Origin: Flavobacterium sp. UBA5153
GTDB taxonomy: Bacteria; Bacteroidota; Bacteroidia; Flavobacteriales; Flavobacteriaceae
Reading direction: 5' to 3' (one strand)
Assembly (NCBI RefSeq): GCF_002413745.1
Contig: NZ_DHXP01000073.1
DNA length: 64,000 nt
Below are positions 7,700 to 35,463 of the stretch, one piece after another (position 1 is the first letter of the stretch; each line of letters starts with the position of its first letter). Under the pieces are notes generated by a model. That model did no database searches, was not told the DNA's origin, and saw only the letters and a list, made by a program, of their open reading frames with translations. Both the position numbers and the translations under genes were made by a program.

Positions 7700-7763
7700 A
7701 ATATTTATCATACTTAAAGTAGCTTTCATATTTTCATTGACACAAGTGTGTACTTGAATGAGA

Positions 7764-8356: not shown

Positions 8357-8436
8357 AGCAAAAGAGCAAAAAAAGACCTTTGAGACCAACAAAATGACCT
8401 CAATAATCAGTAACCCTTTTTTTATAACAGTAAACT

Positions 8437-9060: not shown

Positions 9061-9067
9061 TATCCAG

Positions 9068-10903: not shown

Positions 10904-10951
10904 CTGAAAAAGTTTAAATTCAATTACAAATATAATTAAATAAATCAAAGT

Positions 10952-11494: not shown

Positions 11495-11517
11495 ATAATC
11501 GTATAAGTGATAAATGT

Positions 11518-11575
11518 TGTCAAGTCGGGCACATTCAAGACCAAACGTTGAATCTCGATTGCGCCAGACTTGACA
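11518..11575. repeat. Nested hairpin between convergent genes
   Basis: TGTCAAGTCGGGC / GCCAGACTTGACA form a 13-bp stem with 1 mismatch. An inner ATTCAA...TTGAAT pair sits in the loop. No T-run follows. Confidence 0.6.
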
Positions 11576-11682
11576 GTTAAAGAGATTAAGGACAGAATTA
11601 GTGGAAATTTGTGTAATTCGTAGCGAAGAGCATCCAATACGAATCGTCTTAAAAAACCTTTTTTTAATAGTTCAAAAACAAC

Positions 11683-12417
11683 CTATTTCCCCACCAAATC
11701 ACAATACCAAAACCCAAAATCAAAAGCATCGGAAGTATTGCTGTCGCAAGCTGTATCCGAAGAATCCTCTTTCGGTTTTTCGTATTTTCGATACACGACT
11801 TCGCCAATTTCAAAGTCTATGGGCTTGGAGAAAATAGGGCCGTCAAAAGTGAAAGTGTGGAATTCTCCGTTCTCGCCGCAAACATCCACGTTTTTGGGCA
11901 AATCGTTGATGAAATCTTGATCGATGACGCGACCCACAAAACTTTTGTCCAGAAAACGCTCGTTGACACAAACCACAATGGTTTTAAAACCCAGACTTAT
12001 AAATTCCTGTATTAGGTTTTGGGTTGGAATTTTCCAAAGCGGGAATACGCCTTCAAAACCTATTTCGGACAATTTATCTTCCCGATATTTTCGTAAATCC
12101 TCCAGAAAAATATCTCCAAAAACAGAATGGGTGACGCCTTGGTCTTTCAGTTTTACCAATATTTCCCGCATCACCTTTTCATAGACTTCCATCGAAGGCA
12201 TTTCGGGAATTTGCATAATTTCAAGCGGTAACCCGATGCTTTCGGCTTGTTGTTCCAGTAATTCTACCCGAACGCCGTGCATAGAAATGCGCTGAAACTG
12301 TTGGTTTACGCTCGTGAGTAAACAGGCAATATCAAATTCTTGATCTTGCACTATTTTGTATAAGGCCAGCGCGGAATCTTTTCCGCTGCTCCAGTTAAAT
12401 AAGGCTTTCTTTTTCAA
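11683..12417 (-). CDS. Dph6-related PP-loop ATP pyrophosphatase (DUF71/MJ0570 family)
   Basis: N-terminal FNWSSGKDSALALYK PP-loop motif. 244 aa. Confidence 0.75.
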   Translation of the reverse strand: MKKKALFNWSSGKDSALALYKIVQDQEFDIACLLTSVNQQFQRISMHGVRVELLEQQAESIGLPLEIMQIPEMPSMEVYEKVMREILVKLKDQGVTHSVFGDIFLEDLRKYREDKLSEIGFEGVFPLWKIPTQNLIQEFISLGFKTIVVCVNERFLDKSFVGRVIDQDFINDLPKNVDVCGENGEFHTFTFDGPIFSKPIDFEIGEVVYRKYEKPKEDSSDTACDSNTSDAFDFGFWYCDLVGK

Positions 12418-12484
12418 TGGGATTTTCTTATGGTTTTTGTAGTTGTAAATTTAAACTATTAATTTGTTGTGCTGAATATTTTGT

Positions 12485-12505
12485 GTAGAGACTATGCGTC
12501 TCTAC
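12485..12505. repeat. REP-like hairpin GTAGAGAC-TATGC-GTCTCTAC
   Basis: Perfect 8-bp stem. It shares the 9-mer ATGCGTCTC with the palindromes inside the adjacent Y1 transposase gene. Confidence 0.7.
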
Positions 12506-12640
12506 GTCGTACGTTTCTGCAAATCTAATCGGTTAAAAAATCTGGGGTTATTTTGAATTCTTGCTTTAGAATTTATAGCAATAAAATGCTTACTTTTATT
12601 GCTTTCATCTTTTTGCAAATTAACAAAACCCTTTGATTAA

Positions 12641-13367
12641 ATGTCATTATTCAAAAACAAATACAGAATTGAATCAAACCGATTGAAAGATTGGGATTAT
12701 TCCAGCAATGCCATTTATTTTCTAACTATTTGTACTTCACATAGAGAATGCATTTTCGGTTCAATTGAAAATAAAAAAAATGATTTTAAATGAAAAGGGG
12801 AATATCGTCGAAGAAGAAATTCTAAATTCCATAAAAATCAGGGAAAATTGGATTTTTCATAATTGGAAAGTTATGCCAAATCACGTCCATTTATTGATTG
12901 AAATAAACAAACCGTTTATCCAAAAATGGAATTATTCTATAAAAACAATTTTGCAAGAGGATATAGATATTGAATTAGAAAATTTAGTTCTTTTCAATAA
13001 AAATTTTGAAACACAATCCAAAGAGACGCATAGCAATGCGTCTCAACAATCCGTTAAAAAAAAATCTAAAGAGATGCATAGCAATGAGTCTCAACAGAAT
13101 AAACTAACGGATGAAAATGAAAATAGCACAAAAAAATTATCAAGGAGGCCAAGATCGATTTCCTCATTTGTTGGAGGAATTAAAGGTACCGTTACATCAA
13201 AAATCAATGAATTAAACAATCTTTTCGAAGGTTCAATTTGGCAATCTAATTTTCACGACCATATTGTAAGAAGTTATGAGGAATTCAAAACTGTCTATTA
13301 CTACATAGAAAACAATCCGAAGAATTGGGAAGATGACACTTTTAATCCAATAAATTCTAAAAAATAA
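12641..13367 (+). pseudogene. REP-associated/IS200-like Y1 tyrosine transposase (RAYT-like), interrupted by a frameshift in an A8 run
   Basis: The ORF from ATG 12641 (MSLFKNKYRIESNRLKDWDYSSNAIYFLTICTSHRECIFGSIENKK) stops at 12791. The family continues in the next frame (MILNEKGNIV...WKVMPNHVHLLIE...WQSNFHDHIVR). Deleting one A from 12773-12780 fuses the two frames. Confidence 0.75.
13023..13092. repeat. Two tandem palindromic copies inside the Y1 transposase coding sequence
   Basis: GAGACGCAT-AGCA-ATGCGTCTC at 13023-13044 is a perfect 9-bp stem. GAGATGCATAGCAATGAGTCTC at 13071-13092 is a degenerate copy. They encode ETHSNASQ and EMHSNESQ. Confidence 0.8.
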
Positions 13368-13380
13368 CTTTTGATTAATT

Positions 13381-15486
13381 ATGCGCTATCTTTTTCTCTT
13401 AATTTCCACCATCACATTTGCACAACAAACTAAATTTGTTGATTTCAAATCGGTTTCCGGTCAAGTGACAATTAATCCCAAAGAAAAATCAGTTTCGGGA
13501 GCGGTTCGTTATTGGTTTGATGTTTTGAAACCCATTGACACCATCAAAATTGACGCCCAGAATATGACGTTTTCCGAGGTGGAAATGAACGAACAGAAAA
13601 TTAAATTCAGCACCAATGGGAAACAACTTTTGTTGATTTTTCCGTTCGAAAAAGGGAAAAACACAATCCGCTTTAAATATAAGGCAATCCCAAAACAGGC
13701 ATTGTATTTTGTTGGACATTTCGACTGTGCTCAGTGTGACAAATCGAATGTCATCCCGAGCGCAGTCGAGGGACAGATTTGGACGCAAGGTCAGGGAAAA
13801 TATACCAGCAATTGGTTTCCGAGTTTTGACGACGTGAATGAAAAAATGATTTTTAATTTGGAAGTCGTTTTCGACTCCAAATACCAAGTGATTTCGAATG
13901 GAAAATTAATCAATGGCAATATCAATATCAATGGCAATTTTAAAAATTGGAAATACAGTATGCAAAAACCAATGAGTTCCTATTTATTGATGCTTGCCAT
14001 CGGGAAATTCGACAAAAAAATCGAGTTTTCAAAGTCCAGAATTCCTTTGGAAATGTATTATGAACCCAATACTTTGGCCAAATTTGAACCCACTTATCGC
14101 TATTCAAAACAAATTTTCGACTTTCTGGAAAAGGAAATAGGAGTAAAGTATCCTTGGAAAATATACAAACAAATTCCGGTTCGGGATTTCCTTTATGGCG
14201 GAATGGAAAACACCTCGGCAACGCTTTTTTCCAGTCAATATGTCGTGGATTCAACCGGTTTTGAAGATAGAAATTACACGAATGTGAATGCACACGAACT
14301 GGCACATCAATGGTTTGGAGATTTGGTCACAGCCGAAAGCGGAAAAAACCATTGGCTTCAGGAAGGTTTCGCCACGTATTATGCCTTGCTGGCCGAAAAA
14401 GAAATTTATGGCGACGATTATTTTTATTCCAAATTATACAACTATGCGCAAGAACTCAAACAGGCTTCAAAAACCGATACGATTCCAATTTTGAATCCGA
14501 AAGCGAGTTCGTTGACTTTCTACCAAAAAGGAGCTTGGGCGTTGTATGTTTTGCGAGAAGGAATTGGCGAAAAAGCCTTTAGAAAATCAGTTCAAAACTA
14601 TCTCAAGAAATATTCCTTCCAGAACGTAACTACGCAGGATTTCCTTGCCGAAATCAAGAAAATTTCGGATTATGATTTGGATAATTTTTGTAAAGTATGG
14701 CTCGAAACACCTGGTTTTAATAGTCAAATTGCCAATGATTTACTTTCTAAAAATAAATCTATCCAAACGCTTTTTGAAATTGAAAAATCAAGAAATAAAC
14801 CTTTGTCCGAAAAGAAAGTGTTTTTTGCCAAAATCCTTCAATCGGATGTGTATTCGTCTGTAAAAGAAGCTATCATATATCAATTGAAAAACGAAAATTT
14901 TGAAGACTCGAAACCGTTGTTGATTCTTGCTTTGGCAACCAAAAATAGGCAAGTTCGCCAAGCGGTTGTTGGTATTTTGACTAAAATCCAGGAAGAATTT
15001 AGAACTCAATATGAAAGTCTGCTTGATGATAAATCGTATCAAACACAGGAAATCTCCTTGTATAATTTGTGGAATAATTTTCCCGAACATCGTATAGAAT
15101 ATTTGGAAAAATCAAAGAATTGGATTGGTTTCAATGATTATAATTTGAGGACTTTGTGGTTGTCGCTGGCATTGTCGACTGCTGAATATTCGGTAAACAA
15201 AGAAGGGTTAATCGATGAATTGATTAATTATTCTTCACCCAATTTTGAAGCCACGACACGACAAAATGCTTTAGAAAAACTGATTGCTTTCCATTTGATA
15301 AACGAAACAGTTTTGAAAAATTTGGTCAACGCAACGACTTCTCCTATGTGGCAATTTTCTAAATTTGGCAGAGAAAATATTCGGGCGTTGCTAAAAAATA
15401 AAGAAATGAGAATTTCATTTGAGAGAATTTTACATAATTTAGACGAAAAAGAGCAATTTCAATTGAACCGATTGTTGAAGGAGTAA
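13381..15486 (+). CDS. M1 family metallopeptidase (aminopeptidase N-like), secreted
   Basis: HELAHQWFGD (HExxH), WLQEGFATY and GGMEN motifs. N-terminal signal peptide. Confidence 0.9.
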   Translation: MRYLFLLISTITFAQQTKFVDFKSVSGQVTINPKEKSVSGAVRYWFDVLKPIDTIKIDAQNMTFSEVEMNEQKIKFSTNGKQLLLIFPFEKGKNTIRFKYKAIPKQALYFVGHFDCAQCDKSNVIPSAVEGQIWTQGQGKYTSNWFPSFDDVNEKMIFNLEVVFDSKYQVISNGKLINGNININGNFKNWKYSMQKPMSSYLLMLAIGKFDKKIEFSKSRIPLEMYYEPNTLAKFEPTYRYSKQIFDFLEKEIGVKYPWKIYKQIPVRDFLYGGMENTSATLFSSQYVVDSTGFEDRNYTNVNAHELAHQWFGDLVTAESGKNHWLQEGFATYYALLAEKEIYGDDYFYSKLYNYAQELKQASKTDTIPILNPKASSLTFYQKGAWALYVLREGIGEKAFRKSVQNYLKKYSFQNVTTQDFLAEIKKISDYDLDNFCKVWLETPGFNSQIANDLLSKNKSIQTLFEIEKSRNKPLSEKKVFFAKILQSDVYSSVKEAIIYQLKNENFEDSKPLLILALATKNRQVRQAVVGILTKIQEEFRTQYESLLDDKSYQTQEISLYNLWNNFPEHRIEYLEKSKNWIGFNDYNLRTLWLSLALSTAEYSVNKEGLIDELINYSSPNFEATTRQNALEKLIAFHLINETVLKNLVNATTSPMWQFSKFGRENIRALLKNKEMRISFERILHNLDEKEQFQLNRLLKE

Positions 15487-15503
15487 TATTTTAAACAAAT
15501 TCT

Positions 15504-16406
15504 ATGAGAGCATTAGTGATTTCGGGAGGAGGGAGCAAAGGCGCGTTTGCCGGTGGCGTGGCTCAGTATCTTTTGGAAAAAGAAAAAAATGAATACGATT
15601 TATTCATAGGGACATCATCAGGAAGCTTACTCATCTCTCATTTGGCTTTGGGAAAAATTGATAAAATCTATGGTGTTTTTACGAGGGTTCATATGGATAA
15701 AATATTCGATATCAACCCCTTTATTGTCAAGAACAAGAAAGGAATAGACGTAGTTACGGTTAACCATTTCAGTGTTATTTGGCAGTTTTTAAGAAAAAAA
15801 AGAACTTTTGGGGAAAGCAAAAATTTACAAAAATATATCAAATCCAATTTTTCTATTTCTGAATTCAACCTTTTGAAAGCTACGAAAATCGATGTTGTGG
15901 TTACCGTTACAAATATCTCAAACAATGAAGCAGAATATAAATCAATAAATGATTGTACGTATGATGAATTTTGCGATTGGATCTGGATTTCAAGTAATTA
16001 TGTTCCTTTTATGAGTTTGGCTACCAAAAATGGAAATGAATATGGTGATGGAGGTTTTTCGAGTTTGGTTCCAATTAAGGAAGCAATTAATCGTGGAGCT
16101 ACAGAAATTGACGTTATTATTTTGGAAACAGAAATTGCAGTTAGCAAAATTTCAACTGGCAAAAATCCTTTTTCATTGCTGATAGATTTGTTTAGAATTA
16201 CATTGGATCAAGTCGAAAAACAAAATATTGCATTAGGCAAACTAATCGCAAAAAATAGGAATATAAAACTTAATTTATATTATACCCAAACAAAACTAAC
16301 TGACAATTCACTTATTTTCAATACAATAAATATGAAAAAGTGGTGGAAAGAAGGATATGAATATGCTCAAAACAAGAGTGATATTATGAGCGACAATAAA
16401 CTATAA
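15504..16406 (+). CDS. Patatin-like phospholipase
   Basis: GGGSKGAFAGG oxyanion motif, GTSSGS nucleophile elbow, GDGGF. Confidence 0.85.
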   Translation: MRALVISGGGSKGAFAGGVAQYLLEKEKNEYDLFIGTSSGSLLISHLALGKIDKIYGVFTRVHMDKIFDINPFIVKNKKGIDVVTVNHFSVIWQFLRKKRTFGESKNLQKYIKSNFSISEFNLLKATKIDVVVTVTNISNNEAEYKSINDCTYDEFCDWIWISSNYVPFMSLATKNGNEYGDGGFSSLVPIKEAINRGATEIDVIILETEIAVSKISTGKNPFSLLIDLFRITLDQVEKQNIALGKLIAKNRNIKLNLYYTQTKLTDNSLIFNTINMKKWWKEGYEYAQNKSDIMSDNKL

Positions 16407-16928
16407 TTACCACAATTGTGCCACTTCATTTTTGATAAATGCCAATGCGGCGCTACTTGGAGATGGTTTTTCCAATAAATCTCTTAAAATTACTTCCCGC
16501 AATTGATTGGCATCATTTATTTTTTCATTTTTTGTGGCCAAAAGTATCATTTGTATTGTAGCATTTTTGGCAGTTGTGATTGTTGACCAACATTCGTCTG
16601 AAATATAAATTTGTTGTGCTAAATTGTGCTCATATTCTTGTTCGATTTGTGCAATTACAAAGTTTTGGTAGTCTTTTTTATCTTCTGAAATAGGCGTAAT
16701 TCGAACCAATAATTGAGATGGATTAATGCGCTCCAAAAACAAAGTCATTCGCTCATAAGCTTGTAAACGCAGTGCTAAAGTGTCAGGTTTTGTGTCTTTT
16801 TGCAATAAATATTTTCTTTTTTCAGTCTCATTTTTTGTGTACAATTCAAAGAAACTATAAGCCACAAATGCCATTATTAATGTTGGCAAAGTGTAACTTA
16901 CTAATTCTATTATTCGTGTTGAATCCAT
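16407..16928 (-). CDS. Hypothetical membrane-anchored protein
   Basis: 173-aa ORF with one N-terminal hydrophobic helix. No motif recognised. Confidence 0.5.
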   Translation of the reverse strand: MDSTRIIELVSYTLPTLIMAFVAYSFFELYTKNETEKRKYLLQKDTKPDTLALRLQAYERMTLFLERINPSQLLVRITPISEDKKDYQNFVIAQIEQEYEHNLAQQIYISDECWSTITTAKNATIQMILLATKNEKINDANQLREVILRDLLEKPSPSSAALAFIKNEVAQLW

Positions 16929-17016
16929 TGGTGATTTTTATTTTTTATTAACCAAAGACAAATTAACGAATAAACAAATAAACTTATATATTACATTTGG
17001 TAAAATTTTAATAAAA

Positions 17017-17784
17017 ATGGAAACCTACATCATTGTTATACTTTGTTTAGCCGCTTTTGCCGCTGGATTTATAGATGCCATCGTGGGTGGCGGCGGATTG
17101 ATACAAACCCCGGTTGGATTGATTATGCTGCCCAATTTTCCCGTTTCCACAGTCATTGGCACATTAAAAGTACCCGCTTTCAGCGGAACTTCCTTTGCTG
17201 CCTATCAATATCTTAAAAAAGTGGATATGAACTGGAAACTACTCATTATTATGATGCTTTTAGCATTTCCATCGGCATTTTTGGGATCGACTTTGTTGAC
17301 TTATGTGAGCAATGATTTTATGAAACCTTTATTGTTGGTTGTTCTGTCGTTTTTGGTGATTTACACTTATGCCCAGAAAAATTTTGGGCAGCATATTGTA
17401 AAAACGCATTCTGCCAGAACCCAAGTTCTTTATGCCGTCCTAATCAGTTTTGTGGTTGGTTTTTACGATGGATTCATTGGTCCCGGCACAGGAAGTTTTT
17501 TAGTTTTGGCTTTCATTGCCTTGATGGGATTTGATTTTTTGCACGCTTCCGCCAATGCAAAAATGGTCAATCTGGCGACCAATTTTGGTTCAATTTGCCT
17601 GTTTATGTTGAAAGGCAAAATCTTATGGGCAATCGCAATTCCAATGGCTTGTTGCAATGCATTTGGTGGCTGGCTTGGCGCAAAATTAGCCATCAACAAA
17701 GGGAATAAGTTTATTCGGATTTTCTTTTTGGTCGTCGTTGTTGGCACCTTGATCCGGTTTGCTTACGACGTGTTTTATAAATAG
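17017..17784 (+). CDS. TauE/SafE family sulfite exporter-like membrane protein
   Basis: 255 aa, polytopic. The N-terminus has GFIDAIVGGGGLIQ, typical of the family. Confidence 0.85.
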   Translation: METYIIVILCLAAFAAGFIDAIVGGGGLIQTPVGLIMLPNFPVSTVIGTLKVPAFSGTSFAAYQYLKKVDMNWKLLIIMMLLAFPSAFLGSTLLTYVSNDFMKPLLLVVLSFLVIYTYAQKNFGQHIVKTHSARTQVLYAVLISFVVGFYDGFIGPGTGSFLVLAFIALMGFDFLHASANAKMVNLATNFGSICLFMLKGKILWAIAIPMACCNAFGGWLGAKLAINKGNKFIRIFFLVVVVGTLIRFAYDVFYK

Positions 17785-17813
17785 TTTTAAATCTACTTTT
17801 AAAGTCCCAGTAT

Positions 17814-17854
17814 TCAGTTGCAGTGTGCGGTTGCTTGCTGAAAACTGCGACTGA
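17814..17854. repeat. Hairpin TCAGTTGCAGT / ACTGCGACTGA after the TauE gene
   Basis: 11-bp stem with one G-T pair and a 19-nt loop. Followed by CTGAAAACTG word repeats. No T-run. Confidence 0.5.
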
Positions 17855-17893
17855 AAACTGTTTACTAAACTCAATTCTTAATTCTTAAATCCT

Positions 17894-17901
17894 TATTTTT
17901 G
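17894..17901 (+). promoter_or_regulatory. Candidate Bacteroidota -7 box (TAnnTTTG) for the helicase gene
   Basis: TATTTTTG lies 20 bp upstream of ATG 17921. Confidence 0.3.
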
Positions 17902-17920
17902 CATTCAACAGAAAAATTTT

Positions 17921-20254
17921 ATGCGTAAATACATTGACCAACTTAACGAAGCCCAACGTGAACCCGTATTGCAAAAAGATGGGCCAATGATTATTATTGC
18001 CGGTGCCGGTTCAGGAAAAACGCGTGTATTGACGATTCGTATTGCCTATTTGATGAGTTTGGGAGTTGATGCTTTTAGCATTTTGGCACTTACTTTTACC
18101 AATAAAGCGGCGCGCGAAATGAAAAAACGTATCTCCGATATTGTGGGTTCCAATGAAGCCAAAAATCTTTGGATGGGGACTTTTCACTCGGTTTTTGCAC
18201 GAATTCTGCGTTCCGAAGCGGATAAATTGGGTTATCCTTCAAATTTCACGATTTACGATACTCAAGATTCTGTTCGGTTGATTTCGGCAGTCATCAAGGA
18301 AATGCAATTGGATCGAGACGTTTATAAACCCAAACAAGTTTTAAGTCGGATTTCAAGTTACAAAAATAGTTTGATAACCGTAAAAGCCTATTTCAACAAT
18401 CCCGAATTGCAGGAAGCCGATGCGATGAGCAAAAAGCCTCGATTGGGCGAAATTTACCAAAATTATGTGGACAGATGTTTCAAGGCTGGCGCAATGGATT
18501 TTGATGATTTATTATTGAAAACCAATGAACTGCTGACTCGTTTCCCAGAAGTTTTGGCCAAATATCAAAACCGTTTTCGATATATTTTGGTCGATGAGTA
18601 CCAAGATACCAATCATTCACAATATTTGATTGTTCGAGCTTTATCGGATAAATTCCAGAATATATGCGTCGTGGGCGATGATGCTCAAAGTATTTATGCG
18701 TTTCGTGGCGCCAACATCAATAATATCCTGAATTTCCAGAAGGATTATGAAGGCGTGAAAACCTTTCGATTAGAACAGAATTACCGTTCGACAAAAAATA
18801 TTGTGGAAGCGGCGAATTCGATTATAGACAAAAACAAAACCAAACTTGACAAAATTGTTTGGACTGCCAATAGTGATGGTGCCAAGATAAAAGTGCATCG
18901 CAGTATGACTGATGCCGAAGAAGGGCGTTTTGTGGCCAGCACTATTTTCGAACAAAAGATGCAAAATCAGATGCTCAATGGTCAATTTGCCATTTTGTAT
19001 CGCACCAATGCGCAGTCCCGTGCTATGGAAGATGCGCTCCGGAAACGAGATATTCCGTATCGAATTTACGGTGGTTTATCCTTTTACCAAAGAAAAGAAA
19101 TCAAGGATGTTTTGTGCTATTTGCGATTGGTCATCAATCCAAAAGATGAAGAAGCTTTGATTCGGGTTATCAATTATCCGGCGCGTGGAATTGGAGACAC
19201 AACAGTCGAAAAATTGACTGTCGCCGCCAATCATTACAAGCGTTCCATATTCGAAGTAATGCAGAATATTGATAAAATTGACTTAAAACTGAATTCGGGA
19301 ACCAAGCAAAAACTACAAGATTTTGTTACGATGATTCAGAGTTTTCAGGTGATAAATGAAAATCAGGACGCCTTTTATATCACGGATCACGTGGCCAAGA
19401 AAACAGGATTAGTACAAGAATTAAAGAAAGACGCCACGCCGGAAGGAATGGCAAAAATCCAAAATATCGAGGAATTATTAAACGGAATCAAGGATTTTAC
19501 CGAAGGTCAAAAAGAAATTGACGGAGCCCGTGGTGCCTTATCCGAGTTTATGGAAGATGTGGCATTGGCAACTGATTTGGACAAAGATACCAGTGACGAA
19601 GATCGTGTTGCGTTAATGACAATTCATTTGGCTAAAGGACTCGAATTTCCGTATGTTTTTGTCGTGGGAATGGAAGAAGATTTGTTTCCTAGCGCGATGA
19701 GTATGAGCACCCGAAGCGAGCTCGAGGAAGAACGCCGGTTGTTTTATGTGGCATTGACAAGGGCTGAACATCAGGCGTATTTGACGTATGCGCAATCGCG
19801 TTACCGTTGGGGAAAACTGACCGATAGTGAACCTTCCCGTTTTATTGAAGAAATCGACGGACAATACCTGGAATATCTCACCGCTGAAGAAACCAATTAT
19901 CGCTACAAACCGATGATTGACAGCGATATTTTTGGTGATATTGATAAATCCAGATTGCGTTTGGCAAAACCTGTTACAGGAACTCCACCCAAATATATTA
20001 CAGATAATGAGCCGGTTTCTTCGGTAAATATTCGTAAATTGAAACCAGTTTCCAATAATTCTTCTTCGGGAAGTGCCAATTTATTTGACAATAAATTGGT
20101 CGCAGGAAATATCGTGATGCACGAACGTTTTGGTAAAGGAGAAGTCTTAAACCTTGAAGGCACGGGTGCCGACAAAAAAGCGGAAATCAAATTTGAAGTG
20201 GGAGGAATCAAGAAATTGTTGTTGCGATTTGCGAAATTGGATGTGATTGGATAA
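17921..20254 (+). CDS. uvrD: UvrD/PcrA/Rep family ATP-dependent DNA helicase
   Basis: AGAGSGKT (Walker A), VDEYQDTN, TIHLAKGLEF, and the typical C-terminal GKGEV...KF tail. Confidence 0.9.
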   Translation: MRKYIDQLNEAQREPVLQKDGPMIIIAGAGSGKTRVLTIRIAYLMSLGVDAFSILALTFTNKAAREMKKRISDIVGSNEAKNLWMGTFHSVFARILRSEADKLGYPSNFTIYDTQDSVRLISAVIKEMQLDRDVYKPKQVLSRISSYKNSLITVKAYFNNPELQEADAMSKKPRLGEIYQNYVDRCFKAGAMDFDDLLLKTNELLTRFPEVLAKYQNRFRYILVDEYQDTNHSQYLIVRALSDKFQNICVVGDDAQSIYAFRGANINNILNFQKDYEGVKTFRLEQNYRSTKNIVEAANSIIDKNKTKLDKIVWTANSDGAKIKVHRSMTDAEEGRFVASTIFEQKMQNQMLNGQFAILYRTNAQSRAMEDALRKRDIPYRIYGGLSFYQRKEIKDVLCYLRLVINPKDEEALIRVINYPARGIGDTTVEKLTVAANHYKRSIFEVMQNIDKIDLKLNSGTKQKLQDFVTMIQSFQVINENQDAFYITDHVAKKTGLVQELKKDATPEGMAKIQNIEELLNGIKDFTEGQKEIDGARGALSEFMEDVALATDLDKDTSDEDRVALMTIHLAKGLEFPYVFVVGMEEDLFPSAMSMSTRSELEEERRLFYVALTRAEHQAYLTYAQSRYRWGKLTDSEPSRFIEEIDGQYLEYLTAEETNYRYKPMIDSDIFGDIDKSRLRLAKPVTGTPPKYITDNEPVSSVNIRKLKPVSNNSSSGSANLFDNKLVAGNIVMHERFGKGEVLNLEGTGADKKAEIKFEVGGIKKLLLRFAKLDVIG

Positions 20255-20267
20255 AAAATTTGTTTCA

Positions 20268-20330
20268 AGTTTAAGGTTTAAAGTTGTTGGTAAGAAGAAC
20301 TTTAAACTTTAAATATTTTAACCTTAAACT
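20268..20330. repeat. Word-like palindromic element (AGTTTAAGGTT...AACCTTAAACT, with an inner TTTAAAGTT/AACTTTAAA stem)
   Basis: Outer 11-bp perfect arms and inner 9-bp arms. It shares AAGTTGTTGG with the element at 50294-50370. Confidence 0.8.
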
Positions 20331-20337
20331 AAAAAAA

Positions 20338-20958
20338 ATGGCACAATTCATAAAAATATACCCGGATAAACCCAACGAAGCGGCTATAGCCAAAGTCGTA
20401 AAGGTTTTAAAAGAAGGTGGTTTGGTTATTTATCCAACGGATACGGTTTACGGATTGGGTTGCGATATTACCAATACTAAGGCTCTGGAACGCATTGCCA
20501 AAATAAAAGGAGTGAAGTTGGAGAAAGCTAATTTTTCGTTTATTTGCCACGATTTAAGCAATCTTTCGGATTATGTGAAGCAGGTGGATACGGCTACTTT
20601 TAAATTGCTAAAAAGAGCTTTGCCGGGTCCATATACTTTCATTTTGCCCGGAAATAATAACTTGCCCAAGGAATTCAAGAAGAAAACTACTGTCGGAATC
20701 CGTATTCCGGATAATTCGATTGCATTGGAAATTGTCCGTCAATTAGGCAACCCAATTGTTTCCACTTCCATTCACGATGAGGATGACGTAATTGAATACA
20801 CCACAGATCCAGAACTCATTTTCGAGAAATGGCAAAACTTAGTTGACGTTGTTGTTGATGGCGGTTATGGTGACAATATCGGTTCAACCATTATTGATTT
20901 ATCAGGAGATGAACCAATTGTAGTGAGAGAAGGGAAGGGGAGTTTGGATATTTTATAA
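20338..20958 (+). CDS. Sua5/YciO/YrdC family L-threonylcarbamoyladenylate synthase-like protein
   Basis: YPTDTVYGLGCD and GPYTFILP motifs. ATG at 20338 is preferred over the TTG at 20284 in the ORF track. Confidence 0.85.
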   Translation: MAQFIKIYPDKPNEAAIAKVVKVLKEGGLVIYPTDTVYGLGCDITNTKALERIAKIKGVKLEKANFSFICHDLSNLSDYVKQVDTATFKLLKRALPGPYTFILPGNNNLPKEFKKKTTVGIRIPDNSIALEIVRQLGNPIVSTSIHDEDDVIEYTTDPELIFEKWQNLVDVVVDGGYGDNIGSTIIDLSGDEPIVVREGKGSLDIL

Positions 20959-21131
20959 AATCCAACAATTCAGTGTGAAATAATTGTTACCGTAATGTTG
21001 TTATGTAGGGAATAATTTATACATTTACATAATTTCTTAAGAAGATTTCACTTCTGATATGACAATATATACCGAATGTTGTTCTTAATTTATATATTTA
21101 ATTGGTTATTAATAAACGAATTAGGAAACAT

Positions 21132-29576: not shown

Positions 29577-29867
29577 ATGAAAAAGGATGAAATAATCGAT
29601 ACTTTACAAACGGAAAAGCAATTCCTTAAAGATAATTACGGTGTTATTACCATTGCTTTGTTTGGTTCTTATGCAAAAGGAATGGAAAATCCGGATAGCG
29701 ATGTTGATTTCATTGTCGAATTCAAAGAGCCATCTTATAGCTTGTTGATGGGTTTGTATTCCTATTTAGAAAATAAATTAAATTCCAAAATTGAAATTGT
29801 TAGAAAAGGACCTCATTTATCGGAGCGATTTCTTAATAACATCAAAAACGACTTGATTTATGTATGA
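29577..29867 (+). CDS. mntA: MNT-type nucleotidyltransferase antitoxin
   Basis: LFGSYAKG...DSDVDF minimal nucleotidyltransferase motifs. Overlaps the next gene by 8 bp. Confidence 0.8.
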   Translation: MKKDEIIDTLQTEKQFLKDNYGVITIALFGSYAKGMENPDSDVDFIVEFKEPSYSLLMGLYSYLENKLNSKIEIVRKGPHLSERFLNNIKNDLIYV

Positions 29868-30222
29868 TGCTGTTTATAAATATTCGCTGGAAACTATTTT
29901 AGATCATATCAACATTTGTAATAAAAGATTTTCTGAAATTCATAATCCTATTGATTTTACTTCAACCGATTATGGGAAAACGCTACTCGACTCCATTGTT
30001 ACTAGGCTTCAAGCCATCGGTGAAAACTTAAAAAACACTTCAAGAAAAAACAATTTATTGCAGACCAATTATCCGGAAATTGAGTGGAACAAAATCATTC
30101 GATTTCGGGATTTTATTTCTCATCATTATGAAATGTTGGATTATGAGATTGTTTTTGAAATATGTGAGGATTATTTACCAAAATTAGAATTGGTCATAAA
30201 AGAAGAATTAGCTAAATTTTAA
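29860..30222 (+). CDS. hepT: HEPN (DUF86) toxin
   Basis: RFRDFISHHY contains the Rx4-6H HEPN motif. 120 aa. Confidence 0.8.
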   Translation: MYDAVYKYSLETILDHINICNKRFSEIHNPIDFTSTDYGKTLLDSIVTRLQAIGENLKNTSRKNNLLQTNYPEIEWNKIIRFRDFISHHYEMLDYEIVFEICEDYLPKLELVIKEELAKF

Positions 30223-30227
30223 TAAGG

Positions 30228-30252
30228 ATGCAACCCAAACTCAATCCTTCTT
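30228..30252 (+). repeat. 25-bp perfect copy of the ung start (ATGCAACCCAAACTCAATCCTTCTT)
   Basis: Identical to 34783-34807. Homology ends after CCTTCTT. Confidence 0.9.
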
Positions 30253-30506
30253 TTAGCCGATATGCGCTGTTTTTTACCCAATACGCAACGTATTTTCAGT
30301 CTTTCAGCACCCTAAAATTAAAAGTCCTTTCGCTGATTCGTAATAATTTATCTATATATTTGATAAAAAATAATGTATGTAGGATTATCATACAAAGCCG
30401 CCCAAATAAGGGAGGATTGGAATGATTTTATCAGATTAATCTACGAGTTACCTGATATTTTCGAGCAACAGAAACAGAAACAAAAACTAAAACAAAAATT
30501 AAAATT

Positions 30507-31046
30507 ATGAAAAACAAATTATTACTTACAATTGCAATTCTTTTATGCGCAATTTCTTATTCTCAAGATTTTCCTAAACTAAAATTAACACCAAATGGTG
30601 TTGAACCAATAATTGTAAATACAGATAGTTTAAAAGCAACAGATTTATATGAAAAAGCATTGAATTGGGTACAAGAAACTTATAAAAACCCTGAAAAAGT
30701 TCTTAAAGCAAAAATAGAAAACGAAAAAATTAGAATAGATGCTTTTGCTGAAAATGCTTGGTGGTATAAATCACTTGGAATGAAACAGAATTATAATATG
30801 GCATATTCTGTAGAAATTTCATTCAAAGATGGTAAATACAAGTTTGAGTATATAATTGGACAATTTTTTATTGAAGGCGGACAAAAAGTATTGTATGATT
30901 ACAAAACATTTTATAAAAAAACAGGAGAAGTAAGGAGTGCTTATACTGACGCTGTTCCGAGTTTAGAAGAAACAATGAATAATTTATCATTGAATTTTTA
31001 TAATTATTTGACTGGAAAAACAACAAAAAAAGATGATAAATGGTAA
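30507..31046 (+). CDS. Hypothetical lipoprotein (possibly DUF4468-like)
   Basis: Signal peptide MKNKLLLTIAILLCAISYSQ. 179 aa. The family name is from memory only. Confidence 0.6.
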   Translation: MKNKLLLTIAILLCAISYSQDFPKLKLTPNGVEPIIVNTDSLKATDLYEKALNWVQETYKNPEKVLKAKIENEKIRIDAFAENAWWYKSLGMKQNYNMAYSVEISFKDGKYKFEYIIGQFFIEGGQKVLYDYKTFYKKTGEVRSAYTDAVPSLEETMNNLSLNFYNYLTGKTTKKDDKW

Positions 31047-31055
31047 AATAGTCAA

Positions 31056-31697
31056 ATGAAAAATTTAGAAATTTATAAAGAATTTTATTTTAGAGAAATC
31101 GACCGTAAAAATGAATTAAACAACATCATAAATATACCGATTTTAATTATTACAGGGATTATTTCAGTTCAGTTTTATTTTTACAGCCAACAAATTGAAA
31201 ATTCTTTAAAAATATATTTGGAAGTTTTATCTATAATTTGTGCGTTAAGTATTCTTTATTCAATATTTTATCTTTTGAAATCATTTGGTAATTTTTTCAA
31301 AAATCATAGTTATAAAGAATTGAATGAAATGAACTCAATTTATAAGTATGAAAGGGAATTAATAAAGGAACAAACAAAAATTGCGGACGCTGAAAGTTTC
31401 TTTTTAGAATACTTAAACGAACAGTTTTCTGATTGTGCAAGTCATAATTTTTTAATCAACAAAACAAGAACTGAAGACATAGCAAAATCAAAAAAAGGAA
31501 TTTTTATAAGTATAATTTGCACAATTTTATTTTCAATAATATTTTTAATTTCAATTATTACTATGGCAAAAAAAACTGAAAATACCAAACCAATAGTTAA
31601 ACCAGTTACAACTATTCAACAACCACAAAGTGTTTTAATAAAAAATAGTAAACAGACAAAAGAAACACCTAAAACAAACATAAAGAGAAGTAATTAA
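31056..31697 (+). CDS. Hypothetical membrane protein (3 predicted TM helices)
   Basis: 213 aa, starting 9 bp after the previous stop. Hydrophobic helices at about residues 25-45, 55-75 and 150-170. Confidence 0.55.
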   Translation: MKNLEIYKEFYFREIDRKNELNNIINIPILIITGIISVQFYFYSQQIENSLKIYLEVLSIICALSILYSIFYLLKSFGNFFKNHSYKELNEMNSIYKYERELIKEQTKIADAESFFLEYLNEQFSDCASHNFLINKTRTEDIAKSKKGIFISIICTILFSIIFLISIITMAKKTENTKPIVKPVTTIQQPQSVLIKNSKQTKETPKTNIKRSN

Positions 31698-31754
31698 AAA
31701 CATCAGGTAATCGAGTAGACGGCTCCGCCAGAAACTGACGGAGTGCGCCTCTCA

Positions 31755-31790
31755 CACCACCGAACGTACGGGTCACGTATTCGGCGGTTC
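31755..31790 (-). ncRNA. Group II intron domain V
   Basis: About 34-nt hairpin ACCGCCGAA/UUCGGUGGU with upper stem UACG/CGUA. The CGC triad is typical of IIC introns. Confidence 0.75.
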
Positions 31791-33068
31791 GCAAAGTGAT
31801 GGGTTGAGTTCGATGTAAACATCGGTTAATGATTGATAGCCTCGCTGTTTCAAGCGTTTCAAAGTAATGGTGGTATTCAAAATTGGACTCTGTGCAATTG
31901 CCCAACCGCCTTTCCTCGTCCTGCTCCAAGCATAGGCGTGGTCTTGGTCAACGCCTAATCGAATCAGGTTTTTCCTTTTTCGTTCGGGTTTCTTCCAGTC
32001 GTGCCAAATGCAATAGCGCAGGCGATTTCGTAGCCAGCCGTCTAAATCACGTAATTTGCCCATAATGCTCGTTCCCCGAAAATAGTTTAACCATCCTCGT
32101 TGCACTTCTTTTATCTTGGCAATCCGTTCTTCTAGCTTGACTGGTGCGGTTTTTCGGCTGATGCTTTTGAGCCGTTCTTTGAGTTTCTTCCACGCCTTTT
32201 CTGCCACTACCAACTGGTATTGGTTTTTGCTCCCTTTTTGATACGTTGGCACAAACCCAAATCCCAACAAAGTGAAGTTTACAGGACGTCTAATCCCGCT
32301 TTTCTCGGTGTTGATGGTGAGTTGGAGCTTCGTTTTCAAGAATTTTGCAATTACCTGTGCTGTGGCTTTCGCCTGATTTTGGCTTTTGCAGTAGATGCTA
32401 AAATCATCGGCATAGCGAACGAATTTCAGTTTCCGCCTTGTCATTTCTTTGTCCAACTCATTGAGTAGAATATTAGACAATAACGGACTCAATGGGCTTC
32501 CTTGCGGAACGCCTTTTGTTCGTTTTTGTAATTTTCCGTTGATTCGTATCGGCACTCGCAACCAGTTTCGTATCAAGCGCATTGTGGTTTGGCATTTCAC
32601 TTTTCGATAGACTAAATTCAGCAATAAACAATGATCTACTTCGTCAAAGAAGTTCTTGAGGTCGATGTCCACGATGTGGTTCAGTCCCTGATGGATGTAT
32701 TCCCTCGATTGCCCAACGGCTTGTCGGGCGTTTTTGTTGGGTCTAAATCCAAAACTATTGCTACTGAATTCGGGTTCAAATAGTGGTGCAATTACTTGTG
32801 ATACGGCTTGTTGCAACACTCGGTCGGTGGTGGTGGGAACGCCCAAAAGTCGGGTTTTGCCGTTGCCTTTGGGAATCTCTACGCCTAAAATGGCTTGTGG
32901 CAAGTAGTTGCCTTGTCTGATGGCTTCGAGCAATTGTGCTTTCTTTTGGGGGAATAACATCTTGAGTTGAGTGGTTTTTATACCATCGACTCCTGCGCTT
33001 CCTTTGTTGGAAATCACTTGCTCTACTGCTTTTTGCAGATTGTAAGGATGTACTACTCTCTCAATCAT
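31773..33068 (-). CDS. Group II intron reverse transcriptase/maturase (no endonuclease domain)
   Basis: RT motifs including VRYADDF (YADD). Maturase X region. 431 aa. Confidence 0.9.
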   Translation of the reverse strand: MIERVVHPYNLQKAVEQVISNKGSAGVDGIKTTQLKMLFPQKKAQLLEAIRQGNYLPQAILGVEIPKGNGKTRLLGVPTTTDRVLQQAVSQVIAPLFEPEFSSNSFGFRPNKNARQAVGQSREYIHQGLNHIVDIDLKNFFDEVDHCLLLNLVYRKVKCQTTMRLIRNWLRVPIRINGKLQKRTKGVPQGSPLSPLLSNILLNELDKEMTRRKLKFVRYADDFSIYCKSQNQAKATAQVIAKFLKTKLQLTINTEKSGIRRPVNFTLLGFGFVPTYQKGSKNQYQLVVAEKAWKKLKERLKSISRKTAPVKLEERIAKIKEVQRGWLNYFRGTSIMGKLRDLDGWLRNRLRYCIWHDWKKPERKRKNLIRLGVDQDHAYAWSRTRKGGWAIAQSPILNTTITLKRLKQRGYQSLTDVYIELNPSLCEPPNT

Positions 33069-33613
33069 TTTGTTGTTTTAATCGGTTAACCTGTTCTTGT
33101 TTTTCAGAGCTATAACTTGCGCCATTCCGTTGAAAATTAAGAACCATTTTGCGTTCGGTCCTTCCTTGTTTGTGAGTCCTATGCGGTATCTATTCGCAAC
33201 TCGTTGCCCCAAGTACTATGACTTCTGCTGACTTCTTTGCCTAACCAACTCGTGGTTGCAAAGACCTCCCCTGGTAAGAACTTTTTCCTTCATCCAATCA
33301 CTGGAGCATCTACATCTAAAAGGTTTGGTAATCTTCGGACGTTACGTTGCTGTGGACGCTTATCCCCTTTTAAATGCCTCGTATGCACTTTCTGTTCGTC
33401 AGTACCGGATTTTGTCGTTTCGCTTCCTTCAGTTCTGGCTTCACAGCCAACAACCTTGCGACGTACTAGTGGTTCGGGTTTTCAATCCGCCCACAAGGGA
33501 CTTGCACCCTCTGGAAAAATAACACGCTGTAAGATTTGTTTTCTAATCCAAAATTTGTAATTTCGGATTTTTATCAAAGCCTACAGCGTGTGTCCTGCTC
33601 ATGCAGGGCACAC

Positions 33614-33734
33614 ACAGCCGTTTTGAGCTAGTGTGTGATTTAGTGGAATTAGCGTTTCGCATTATGTTTTCTGCAAAGCCGAAAATTGAAAGGTTACGAA
33701 ATCCCCACCATCTCAAAGCAGCGGAACGTTAGGC
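33614..33734 (+). repeat. attC-like junction element 1 (right part; the left 10-14 nt are at 31701-31714, split by the intron)
   Basis: Read across the intron: AGGTAAT (R''-like), 6-nt spacer, GCCGTTTTGAG (33617-33627) pairing with CTCAAAGCAGC (33712-33722), 5-nt spacer, GTTAGGC (33728-33734, matching GTTRRRY). About 131 nt without the intron. Confidence 0.45.
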
Positions 33735-33777
33735 ACAATGTTGCCAAAAAAAAACAATTAACTTAAAATAAAAATAA

Positions 33778-34275
33778 ATGGGATTTTTCACATCAAAACC
33801 GAAAAAAAAAGCACTTCAAATTTTAGAAATTGAAATAACAGATAGTCTTTTATCAAAATTAGTTGAAACGCAAAAACTGAATGGTTTTACAGACTATTCA
33901 ATTGAAATTTCAGAAAAATTTAAACTATTTGATATTGCAATTTTCAGAAGTTTTGAAAACACAAAAGAACTTACAAACGAAACTTCATTCAATTTAATTC
34001 TCGAAAACAAAAATCAATCAATAACTATAAATAAAGTTAAAGAATTAGTGAATTCTTTTTCAGCTGAATATGGAAATGACAGAAATGGAAAATCAAAATG
34101 GACGAATGAAGATGATAAAGCAATCTCAACTTATTGGGAAGGGCGTGAATGGATTTTAGATAGTAAAAGAAAATCTCAAAAGGTTTTTGAAAAAGATTGC
34201 TGTCAAATTAATTTTCATTTTAACCTAGATGACGGAGTAGATTTTTCAATTTTAGGAGCAAATAGTCAAATTTAA
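33778..34275 (+). CDS. Hypothetical cytoplasmic protein (cassette-like ORF)
   Basis: 165-aa ORF flanked by the inverted 15-mers GTTAGGCACAATGTT (33728-33742) and AACACTGTGCCTAAC (34295-34309). Confidence 0.55.
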   Translation: MGFFTSKPKKKALQILEIEITDSLLSKLVETQKLNGFTDYSIEISEKFKLFDIAIFRSFENTKELTNETSFNLILENKNQSITINKVKELVNSFSAEYGNDRNGKSKWTNEDDKAISTYWEGREWILDSKRKSQKVFEKDCCQINFHFNLDDGVDFSILGANSQI

Positions 34276-34302: not shown

Positions 34303-34360
34303 GCCTAACAGCTAGAGTTTCGTTGCGTGCGCAGTACGAACAATGAAACTCGTGTTGAAC
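34303..34360 (+). repeat. attC-like junction element 2 (58 bp)
   Basis: GCCTAAC (matches RYYYAAC), spacer AGCTA, stem GAGTTTCGTTG / CAATGAAACTC, spacer GT, GTTGAAC (matches GTTRRRY). The right spacer is shorter than canonical. Confidence 0.4.
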
Positions 34361-34495
34361 GGAACCAAAGTACCTGCCGTTAACACTATGGAGTTATCAT
34401 AAAGTTTTTAGAGAGAATGCAAATAGTCCAATAGCCGTCAGGATTGTCCGCTTCGCTTAATGCTAAAGTGTAAACATTAACCATTGCATTTTGCG

Positions 34496-34651
34496 AAAAC
34501 TTCACGAACTTTACTGCAAATTAAATTGTATGCAACTCAAACTCAATCCTTCTTGGCAAACTATTTTAGATGACGAAATCCAGAAACCTTATTTCCAGGA
34601 TTTGATGAAGGCTGTCGATGAAGAATACAAAAATCATACTTGTTTTCCCCC
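34496..34651 (+). pseudogene. Truncated, diverged copy of the ung upstream region plus the first ~41 codons
   Basis: Aligns to 34748-34904 with roughly a dozen mismatches by eye (MQLKLNPSWQTILDDEIQKPYFQDLMKAVDEEYKNHTCFPP versus the intact gene). Homology stops after CFPP. Confidence 0.85.
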
Positions 34652-34750
34652 TGCTGGCGCAAGCATTAGGTAACACAGACGCTAGTGCGAGTTTCCAAAC
34701 TCGTACCCTAAATAGTGGGCACAAGCGTGACGCTTGCGACAGCGGAGGAA
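34652..34750 (+). repeat. Junction element 3 (related to elements 1 and 2)
   Basis: CATTAGGTAACACAGACGCTAGTGCGAGTTT parallels CATCAGGTAATCGA|ACAGCC..GCTAGTGTGTGATTT of element 1. Its end, ACAGCGGAG, parallels GCAGCGGAAC of element 1. It has hairpins CGAGTTT/AAACTCG and CAAGCG/CGCTTG. Confidence 0.35.
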
Positions 34751-34782
34751 AACTTTGCGAACTTTACGGCAAATTAAATTAT

Positions 34783-35463
34783 ATGCAACCCAAACTCAAT
34801 CCTTCTTGGCAAACTATTTTATCAGATGAAATCCAGAAACCTTATTTTAAGGACTTGATGAAAGCTGTCGATGAAGAATACAAGAATCACACTTGTTTTC
34901 CTCCAAAGGAATTGATTTTCGCCGCTTTCGATCATTGTTCGTTTGACCATTTGAAAGTGGTCATTATTGGACAAGATCCGTACCACGGGATTCATGAAGC
35001 GAATGGTTTGTGTTTTTCGGTAAACGATGCTGTCAAGATTCCACCTTCGTTGCGCAATATTTTTAGGGAATTGAATGATGATTTGGGAACTGTTTTCCTG
35101 CCTACTTCCGGCAACTTGGAACATTGGGCAAAACAAGGCGTTTTACTTTTGAATGCTTCTCTTTCGGTTCGAATGGACAATCCAAACAGTCATAAACATT
35201 TGAAATGGGCAACTTTTACCGATGCTGTTATCCAGAAAATTTCGGATGAAAAAGAAAATATAGTGTTTTTGCTTTGGGGAAGTTTTGCCAAGAAAAAAGG
35301 TTCCAAAATTGACAGAAATAAACATCTGGTTTTAGAATGCGGACATCCTTCGCCTATGAGCGCCAATCAAGGAAAATGGTTTGGGAACAAACATTTTAGC
35401 CAGACGAATGAGTATTTGAAATCGAAAGGAAAAACCGGAATCGATTGGTCAATTATAAATTAA
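34783..35463 (+). CDS. ung: Uracil-DNA glycosylase
   Basis: GQDPYHG and HPSPMSA motifs. Start at ATG 34783 (MQPKLNPSWQTIL). The upstream extension in the ORF track reads through junction DNA. Confidence 0.9.
   Translation: MQPKLNPSWQTILSDEIQKPYFKDLMKAVDEEYKNHTCFPPKELIFAAFDHCSFDHLKVVIIGQDPYHGIHEANGLCFSVNDAVKIPPSLRNIFRELNDDLGTVFLPTSGNLEHWAKQGVLLLNASLSVRMDNPNSHKHLKWATFTDAVIQKISDEKENIVFLLWGSFAKKKGSKIDRNKHLVLECGHPSPMSANQGKWFGNKHFSQTNEYLKSKGKTGIDWSIIN

Follow-up and report, generated by a model that had tools for sequence, protein, structure and literature searches.

A 64,000-nucleotide (nt) stretch of Flavobacterium sp. UBA5153 (contig NZ_DHXP01000073.1), referred to here as the window and always meant at its whole 64-kb length, carries a group II intron of bacterial class C (IIC) on its minus strand, which is the intron strand throughout. 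We consider it very probable that the element at 31710-33613(-) is a complete IIC intron that retrohomed into the bottom strand of an attC-like hairpin, and that it represents a Bacteroidota lineage specialised on such hairpins and separate from the IIC-attC introns of integrons. This reading draws on direct observation of the intron anatomy and its exact ends, the target consensus, covariation within the target hairpin, the structure of hairpin arrays in other genomes and the association of these arrays with a recombinase. IIC-attC introns are, to our knowledge, so far a single proteobacterial lineage, and it has been discussed whether they create integron cassettes. If our reading is correct, a lineage in a second phylum uses the same strand, site and orientation, which would mean that class C introns have been drawn to attC-type hairpins more than once.

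The most interesting part of these results is the system outside the window that was revealed by the target preference of the intron, and of which the window is a minimal, integrase-less instance. This preference may be usable as a probe for recombination hairpins missed by standard attC models, and it leads to cassette arrays that adjoin a recombinase other than IntI in Bacteroidota, where integrons are reported to be nearly absent. With somewhat less than even confidence, we tentatively propose that cassettes with hairpins of 125-130 nt or ~60 nt and a Xer-like recombinase lacking the IntI insertion form a largely unrecognised integron-like system of Bacteroidota (Flavobacteriia, Bacteroidia and relatives), that the intron specificity for it evolved independently, and that an intron fragment beside the tigecycline-resistance gene tet(X4) is a fossil of the Bacteroidota origin of this gene.

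Anatomy and ends of the intron

The full-length intron comprises 1904 nt (5' GUGUGCCC ... GUCUACUCGAU 3'). Its termini, GUGUG at the 5' end and ...CUACUCGAU at the 3' end (closing in ...GAU), are of the GUGYG and AY types expected of group II introns. An Rfam scan matched RF02001 at 33279-33450 (122.3 bits, E 1.3e-24) and RF01998 at 33158-33256 (36.2 bits), which together delimit the core of ribozyme domains I-III (33158-33450, including GAAGUCAGCAGAAGUCAUAGUAC). A local scan matched RF00029, the model for domains V and VI (DV and DVI), at 31710-31789 (36.4 bits, E 1.4e-4, slightly below the gathering score of 40). The strength of the Rfam matches is far above chance, and the group II intron models named as a check in the initial annotation, which had been made from the letters of the sequence, do match. 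The DV hairpin at 31757-31790 was located by the RF00029 alignment and an RNA fold and reads GAAC-CGC-CGAAUACG..., with a CGC and not an AGC catalytic triad. Domain VI (31710-31754), delimited by the Rfam alignment, the fold and the 3' ends of relatives, is a long helix that ends in AU, and alignment and fold agree on a bulged branch-point A at 31716, which is position -7 from the 3' splice site. Together DV and DVI fold with -40.7 kcal/mol (z -4.7). The letters cited in the initial annotation were confirmed: the minus strand from 33613 reads GTGTGCCCTGCATGAGCAGG, and this strand contains GAAGTCAGCAGAAGTCATAGTAC as well as GAACCGCCGAATACGTGACCCGTACGTTCGGTGGTG, the DV string that includes the CGC triad. 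A higher GC content than in the flanks had also been noted, and amounts to 41-48% within the intron versus 20-30% in the flanking open reading frames (ORFs).

The ends were mapped by aligning the junctions of related loci to the window intron. On the 5' side similarity among relatives starts precisely at GTGTGCCC, and on the 3' side conservation extends through ...GTCTACTCGAT and then ceases (~70 related copies; ending CTCGAT). Tandem copies in loci L073 and L064 abut exactly as CTACTCGAT|GTGTGCCC. The intron was assigned to 31710-33613 because of these limits of conservation, the tandem junctions and the position of the branch A at -7. The 3' end was originally placed at 31715, five nt from the true end and immediately past the branch A, and since five intron bases were thereby left in the "exon", the junction proposed as CATCAGGTAATCGA|ACAGCCG is corrected to CATCAGGTA|ACAGCCG. 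On the plus strand the restored site reads ...TAA TTAAAAA CATCAGGTA|ACAGCCGTTTTGAGCTAGTG.... In the tandem copies (L073 1-141; L064 about 2300-2419) the second copy begins right where the first one ends, which indicates that an already occupied site was re-invaded.

The intron-encoded protein (31773-33068(-); 431 aa) has reverse transcriptase (RT) and maturase (X) domains but no DNA-binding/endonuclease domain, as originally described: the Pfam search detected RVT_1 (2.6e-42) and GIIM (2.8e-14) and no other domain, and the NCBIfam model group_II_RT_mat gave 371 bits. The stop codon of this ORF falls within DV. Its top matches in the PDB are the GsI-IIC RT (6AR1, 6.5e-100) and the RT of the Eubacterium rectale IIC intron (7UIM, 7e-94), the class C RT-domain structures 5HHJ and 5HHL are also among the nearest solved proteins, and the matches to the IIA protein LtrA (1.9e-37) and to a IIB RT (1.2e-35) are far weaker. 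In a small neighbour-joining (NJ) tree the clade of Bacteroidota RTs is positioned among class C sequences. A DV with CGC, an RT without the endonuclease domain and nearest solved proteins that are class C RTs support assignment of the intron to class C.

Several properties are held in common with canonical class C introns (O. iheyensis O.i.I1 and B. halodurans B.h.I1), namely the GUGUG 5' end, the DV CGC triad, short exon- and intron-binding sites 1 (EBS1 and IBS1), absence of IBS2 and dependence on an upstream stem-loop. The encoded protein likewise resembles canonical class C RTs (GsI-IIC, 6AR1; E. rectale, 7UIM), which are endonuclease-less proteins of ~420-430 aa, with an identity of about 41% to the GsI-IIC RT. 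Canonical class C introns are mostly located behind Rho-independent terminators, whereas the window lineage lies inside a recombination-type hairpin with conserved AAC/GTT. The close resemblance to the O. iheyensis intron put forward in the initial annotation may hold, and the class C assignment lends it indirect support.

The insertion site and its hairpin

We gathered 33 different insertion sites of the intron family, of which 31 entered an anchored pair count and 29 an alignment. On the intron-sense strand these sites share the architecture NNN(Y)TAAC - G(T/G)TT.. - GC.GC - long imperfect hairpin - A.C.GC - TGT|T(A/G)NNN. The hairpin is imperfect, 125-130 nt long and flanked by AAC...GTT, with about 116-128 nt from the AAC to the insertion point. 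Every independent site ends in TGT|T, giving the family target consensus (C)TGT|T(A/G), and the window target reads GCTGT|TACCT on the intron strand.

RNAalifold, run on a MAFFT alignment of the targets, gave no pairs because the alignment was out of structural register, and it was replaced by the anchored pair count and by a test of a named structure. With the ends anchored, C0 pairs with G-2 and both As of the AAC pair with the Ts that flank the insertion in 30-31 of 31 sites; the next 16 stem positions pair in register, with numerous compensatory changes. The named structure, a 7-bp base helix plus a 19-bp proximal stem, was tested for covariation on the MAFFT alignment of the 29 reconstituted sites. 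It has 76.8% of cells paired (34-50% in slid controls), 133 double-change cells (at most 58 in the controls) and a covariation score of 0.388 (at most 0.13 in the controls), and none of 500 shuffles attained the observed covariation values. In the proximal stem 17 of the 19 pairs have changed on both sides and 79.7% of cells are paired, with controls far lower. Covariation across the family thus strongly supports the hairpin stem, which stops 3-8 nt upstream of the insertion point.

In the window the intron divides one such site. The R''-like box, AGGTA|AC, has its left part at 31705-31709(+), as judged from its sequence and the family architecture, starting 8 nt beyond ORF 31056-31697 (counted from the final base of its stop codon). 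The rest of the long attC-like hairpin (33614-33734(+)), in the register common to 28 other sites, ends in the R'-like box GTTAGGC (33728-33734). A covariance model built from 29 sites (R1) matches the interrupted site at 33601-33739(-) with 72.8 bits, and the bottom strand reads TAAC-GTTCC-GCTG-C-TTTGAG...CTCAAA-A-CGGC-TGT|TA. Its left-hand AAC corresponds to the R'-type box, that is, to GTTAGGC on the top strand, which fits GTTRRRY. The insertion point is the GT|T of the right-hand base helix (top AGGTA|AC, bottom GT|TACCT). It therefore lies within the R''-like box and not, as first proposed, in a spacer between that box and the stem. The remainder of the original description of the insertion, on the bottom strand just 3' of an attC-like stem and antisense to the cassette ORFs, is borne out by the family sites and by the strands of the flanking ORFs. 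Only 4 bp (TAAC/GTTA) pair between the boxes in the window; in relatives the box extensions beyond AAC/GTT are often complementary, for example CCGCATAAC/GTTATGCGG.

A side observation concerns the middle of the stem, where a G opposite a T is kept in 26 of 29 hairpins (columns 47/140 of alignment A1; about 33711 and 33631 in the window). A conserved G/T in a freely co-varying stem may, by analogy, be a recognition feature like the extrahelical bases of attC sites.

The elements for exon recognition were identified from the Rfam consensus structure and a fold. EBS1 (5'-ACAGC-3', 33349-33353(-)) lies in an 8-nt terminal loop of domain I (CCACAGCA, 33348-33355) and is complementary to the final five nt of the 5' exon, the IBS1 5'-GCUGU-3' at 33614-33618(-); related 5' exons all end in TGT and most in GCTGT. 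IBS3 is the T at 31709(-), the first base of the 3' exon, and the 3' exons of relatives begin with T followed by A or G. Across relatives the loop ACA and the exon TGT are invariant, while loop base 4 is G, C or U: a G occurs mostly with C at exon position -4, a C with G in 3/7 and a U with A in 2/7. These data lend moderate support to a predicted EBS1-IBS1 pairing of 3-5 bp.

A mechanism of arrival by retrohoming can be proposed on this basis. The intron RNA and its own RT/maturase would recognise the bottom strand of the attC-like site when it is single-stranded and folded as a long hairpin. The EBS1 loop ACAG(C) would pair with the (G)CUGU that closes this hairpin on its 3' side and the EBS3 base with the next T, and the RNA would reverse-splice into the GT|T of the R''-like box, entering between its Ts. 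Since the RT has no endonuclease, copying into DNA would be primed by the host, in the manner of other IIC introns. In its antisense orientation the intron cannot be removed from cassette transcripts by splicing, and it cuts ORF 31056-31697 off from both the next cassette and the other part of its attC-like site. The targeting of single strands is what we infer, and the window intron would be a functional counterpart of the proteobacterial IIC-attC introns.

Some features of the site weigh against this reading. The minimum free energy fold of the window hairpin keeps the family register, but its energy is unexceptional (z -0.3); the R''-like box AGGTAAC departs from RYYYAAC; and several relatives are mismatched at position 4 of EBS1. 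Because of its unremarkable fold energy, the structural support for the window hairpin is comparative. The same low energy, together with the position of the site 8 nt past a stop codon and the general location of IIC introns after palindromes or terminators (PMC3001079), would be compatible with an ordinary IIC intron behind a transcription-terminator hairpin, whose likeness to attC is coincidental. We regard this as extremely improbable, since the stem is not followed by a run of Ts, the hairpin extends over about 100 nt, AAC...GTT is kept at the base in 30-31 of 31 sites of an architecture that covaries phylum-wide, and such hairpins are arrayed after successive ORFs next to a recombinase.

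Hairpin arrays, recombinase and intron lineage

Searching the intron loci with R1 gave 75 copies of the hairpin, all on the intron strand. Uninterrupted hairpins lie 0.4-1.2 kb apart, as in locus L031 (2334, 5109, 6238 and 7083), and 112 of 136 flanking ORFs of at least 200 aa are on the strand opposite to the intron. Among these 136 ORFs a single one encodes a recombinase (L001:4998-6047; Phage_integrase plus Phage_int_SAM_4). In an independent test, 80 metagenome loci were fetched solely by similarity to this recombinase and then searched with R1. This yielded 61 matches in about 27 loci, nearly always beginning beside the recombinase gene, within ~0.5-1 kb of it. Most arrays lie downstream and are co-oriented with the gene (L093, with 11 units at 10001-21026, L123, L104, L101, L102, L114 and L115), while those of L103 (7 units, 1-11040) and L098 are upstream and divergent. 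In ORF maps each unit consists of one or two co-oriented ORFs followed a few nt later by a hairpin of 125-210 nt.

The architecture of these arrays beside the recombinase is, at the sequence level, that of integrons. As in integron attC sites, the hairpins are imperfect palindromes after each ORF, with left boxes ending in AAC and right boxes starting with GTT that would pair at the base, an asymmetric internal loop and variable terminal structure, in co-oriented arrays. The original attC-like reading of the junction accordingly gains support from the covariation of the hairpin, the co-oriented ORF-hairpin arrays and the adjoining tyrosine recombinase. Two differences stand against these similarities: the recombinase beside the hairpins is Xer-like, without the additional domain of IntI, and the long-type hairpins are unusually uniform in length and have their own conserved sequence. 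The recombinase is ~350 aa long, including an N-terminal extension of ~75 aa, and is equally near to archaeal XerA (4A8E, 5HXY) and VchIntIA (2A3V), all with ~1e-35. Because it is not a canonical IntI, we use "attC-like" for the sites and "integron-like" for the arrays, and the name attC is applied to the hairpins by analogy. In genomes other than that of the window, hairpins of this kind form integron-like arrays of single-ORF cassettes, and they would be substrates of the Xer-like tyrosine recombinase beside them. Among Bacteroidetes, IntegronFinder 2.0 reported In0 elements only, plus one complete integron in Salinibacter (PMC9024848). Our literature searches, whose coverage was incomplete and which are no proof of novelty, found no account of such arrays or attC sites in Flavobacteriia or Bacteroidia.

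To the points raised above by the site itself, others must be added from this wider comparison. The alignment of the recombinase to VchIntIA omits residues 215-247, which are the IntI-specific insertion, and the recombinase scores 204 with the NCBIfam integron-integrase model TIGR02249, for which the cut-off is 265. No homologue of the tyrosine recombinase lies within the 64-kb window, and the window holds just one long-type and one short-type site. As regards activity, every contig in which the downstream cassette protein was present and which reached the junction also has the intron, so that no empty site was found; no second copy of the intron was found in the same genome; and a search of read sets recovered the locus only in DNA metagenome contigs and in no RNA set, with no spliced joint, the contigs that were aligned belonging to other copies of the intron than the one at this site.

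Alternatively, the hairpins might be non-recombinational repeats (REP/MITE-like) targeted by chance, with proximity to the recombinase being a consequence of genomic islands. Such an explanation would fit a recombinase without the insertion by which IntI reads the extrahelical bases of attC, the single recombinase among 136 intron-flanking ORFs and its absence from the block in the window. It would not account for arrays that, in loci chosen by the recombinase, start within ~0.5-1 kb of its gene in a fixed orientation with a hairpin after nearly each ORF, nor for AAC/GTT being conserved at the very base of the hairpin, as would be predicted for a crossover site. We therefore consider it quite unlikely, and prefer to read the hairpins as recombination sites.

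The distribution of the intron was examined by scanning species-representative genomes for relatives of the window RT. This detected 80 loci with RTs 66-94% identical to it, almost exclusively in Bacteroidota, including RTs 92-94% identical at different sites in other Flavobacterium genomes and 81%-identical copies on an element common to Bacteroides, Phocaeicola, Prevotella and Paraprevotella. The copies of this last group, from five genera of gut Bacteroidales (L018-L022; 81% identity in the RT), have identical flanks on both sides, which indicates carriage on a shared mobile element. The identical intron sequence recurs in several independent metagenome assemblies, always at the locus of the window.

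The published IIC-attC introns occupy R'' of attC sites on the bottom strand, with the consensus TTGT/T and opposite to the cassettes (PMC7923331; PMC3001079). The target (C)TGT|T of the window intron and its family agrees with the published TTGT/T at R'' (PMC7923331), and the geometry of insertion is closely similar. Those described by Léon & Roy and by Quiroga et al. (S.ma.I2, E.c.I7, Kl.pn.I1, G.s.I1 and Sh.ba.I2) resemble the window intron in combining a class C ribozyme and an endonuclease-less RT/maturase with a folded bottom-strand hairpin, insertion at the R'' end, a TTGT/T-like target and an antisense position relative to the cassettes. In contrast to them, the window lineage has Bacteroidota hosts and its target hairpins, of 125-130 nt with their own flanks (AACGTTTTGC..GC / AAC.GCTGT|T), go with a Xer-like recombinase without the IntI insertion.

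We placed the window RT in an NJ tree with 15 Bacteroidota RTs, GsI-IIC, three plasmid class C RTs, a IIB outgroup and the published IIC-attC fragment UHB.F1 (PMC7923331 supplement). Two further plasmid matches were rejected as IIC-attC references, as H65 consists of no more than a DV-like remnant within an IncC backbone and H67 is a class C intron of the ordinary kind in sense orientation. The Bacteroidota clade did not join UHB.F1, although this is a weak test with one IIC-attC representative and a distance method. Identity of the window RT amounts to 34% with UHB.F1, compared with 41% for GsI-IIC and 43-45% for class C RTs of Firmicutes. In Léon et al. the intron-encoded protein of Bacteroides thetaiotaomicron served as a general class C sequence and fell outside the IIC-attC node, which had 100% support. 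The similarities in strand, orientation and target motif, (C)TGT|T versus TTGT/T, and between the 3' ends ..CUACUCGAU of the window intron and ..CUACCCGAU of UHB.F1 could also have arisen if the intron were a member of the monophyletic IIC-attC lineage (S.ma.I2 group) that had been transferred to a flavobacterium. This possibility is very unlikely given a lower RT identity to UHB.F1 than to other class C RTs, the separation in the tree, the position of the B. thetaiotaomicron protein and relatives that are almost wholly from Bacteroidota. Because its RT does not group with the IIC-attC representative, the window intron appears to belong to a parallel Bacteroidota lineage, and not, as the initial annotation suggested, to extend the known IIC-attC subgroup to a flavobacterial host. 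The class C introns of Bacteroidetes in the group II intron database (for example B. thetaiotaomicron AE015928 and Microscilla pSD15) are of the same phylum and class, and our literature searches found no account in which the sites they target are described as attC-like or as part of cassette arrays.

Whether the window copy is itself active bears on a further alternative, that it is a structurally complete but immobile relic. Its single copy in the window, the restriction of contigs with an identical RT to the same locus and the failure of an empty site or of RNA evidence to turn up in the contigs and read sets examined would all be expected of a relic. Conversely, the ORF is intact with all motifs, every ribozyme domain is recognisable, the sequence is identical in independent metagenome assemblies and related species carry near-identical RTs at other sites. 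A relic is on balance unlikely, though far from negligible, and the intron is complete and probably still mobile, with splicing and mobility of the window copy being predicted.

The cassette-like block and a fragment beside tet(X4)

The cassette-like block of the window is small and resembles a tiny CALIN, as attC clusters without integrase are termed. Its part upstream of the intron (30507-31697(+), on the strand opposite to the intron) contains ORFs 30507-31046 (DUF4468) and 31056-31697 (membrane protein). Downstream lies an ORF of 165 aa without an assigned family (33778-34275(+)), located between the R' of the long site and a short attC-like site, and regarded as a cassette because it is bounded by these two sites. 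The short site is uninterrupted (34303-34360(+); GCCTAAC-AGCTAGAGTTTCGTTG-loop-CAATGAAACTCGT-GTTGAAC), and its bottom strand, CTGT|TAGGC, makes it a potential intron target that is unoccupied. Conserved counterparts, in which the loop stem co-varies, lie in L091 (16254-16386, within a recombinase array and oriented in the same way), L004 and L017. More conserved sequence follows the site (..TATGGAGTTATC; 34303-34400 in the window, with relatives beginning YTAAC), and the short element is present in very high copy in contigs of soil, peat and groundwater metagenomes (depth 32-93x, flanks 0).

When the whole window was searched with R1, the interrupted site alone was matched. The string CATTAGGTAACACAGACGCTAGTG, originally called junction element 3, does exist once in the window by string search (34664-34687(+)). 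It was taken for an uninterrupted copy of the junction, with which it shares ATYAGGTAAC and GCTAGTG, yet it gives no match to the covariance model and has a different fold. Two other proposed junctions, 30253-30506 and 34652-34747, were rejected as family members as modelled, R1 being silent even with filters off. A scan of the window that counted stem pairs within AAC...GTT was dropped, as matches were equally frequent in shuffled sequence.

The block lies between an MNT/HepT toxin-antitoxin pair and ung. The genes for MNT (nucleotidyltransferase) and HepT (HEPN RNase) overlap (29577-30222) and adjoin mutS2. The 5' end of ung is present three times, with the cassette-like block between the first and last copies: copy 1 is a 25-nt stub of the coding sequence directly after the HepT stop (30219-30252 region), copy 2 has 157 nt (34495-34651) with 90% identity to the real start, and copy 3 (34748-34904) belongs to the intact gene. 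At 30440-30460(+), the sequence AATCTACGAGTTACCTGATATT (TCTAC...TTACCTGAT) resembles the intron 3' end plus exon (GTCTACTCGAT|TACCTGATG) on the opposite strand. No DV or DVI was found upstream of it, and this similarity could be fortuitous or the trace of a decayed site. In L084/L175 (JGI 3300011997) an ORF of 122 aa replaces the 213-aa ORF 31056-31697 while the intron and downstream genes are identical, which points to strain-level variation in the cassette block.

Finally, the last 91 nt of the intron (query 31710-31800(-)) match more than 200 enterobacterial plasmids (Escherichia, Citrobacter, Proteus) with 95.6% identity. In pNT1N34-tetX4 (L171, NZ_CP075467.1, about 4880-5091) ~200 nt of the intron 3' end, as estimated by eye, comprising the RT C-terminus, DV and DVI, lie between the ISVsa3/ISCR2 transposase and tet(X4), and carry no annotation in the plasmid record. 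Literature searches of incomplete coverage found nothing specific on a group II intron beside tet(X4). The fragment ends in ...CTACTCGAT|TATGTGCC, 21 nt from the tet(X4) stop and antisense to the gene, in the same geometry as in the window. This arrangement suggests that tet(X4) was acquired from a Bacteroidota cassette whose site already held such an intron. In more than 200 plasmids of clinical and farm origin, the match would label an unannotated stretch by tet(X4), which could aid tracing of where and how this gene was mobilised.

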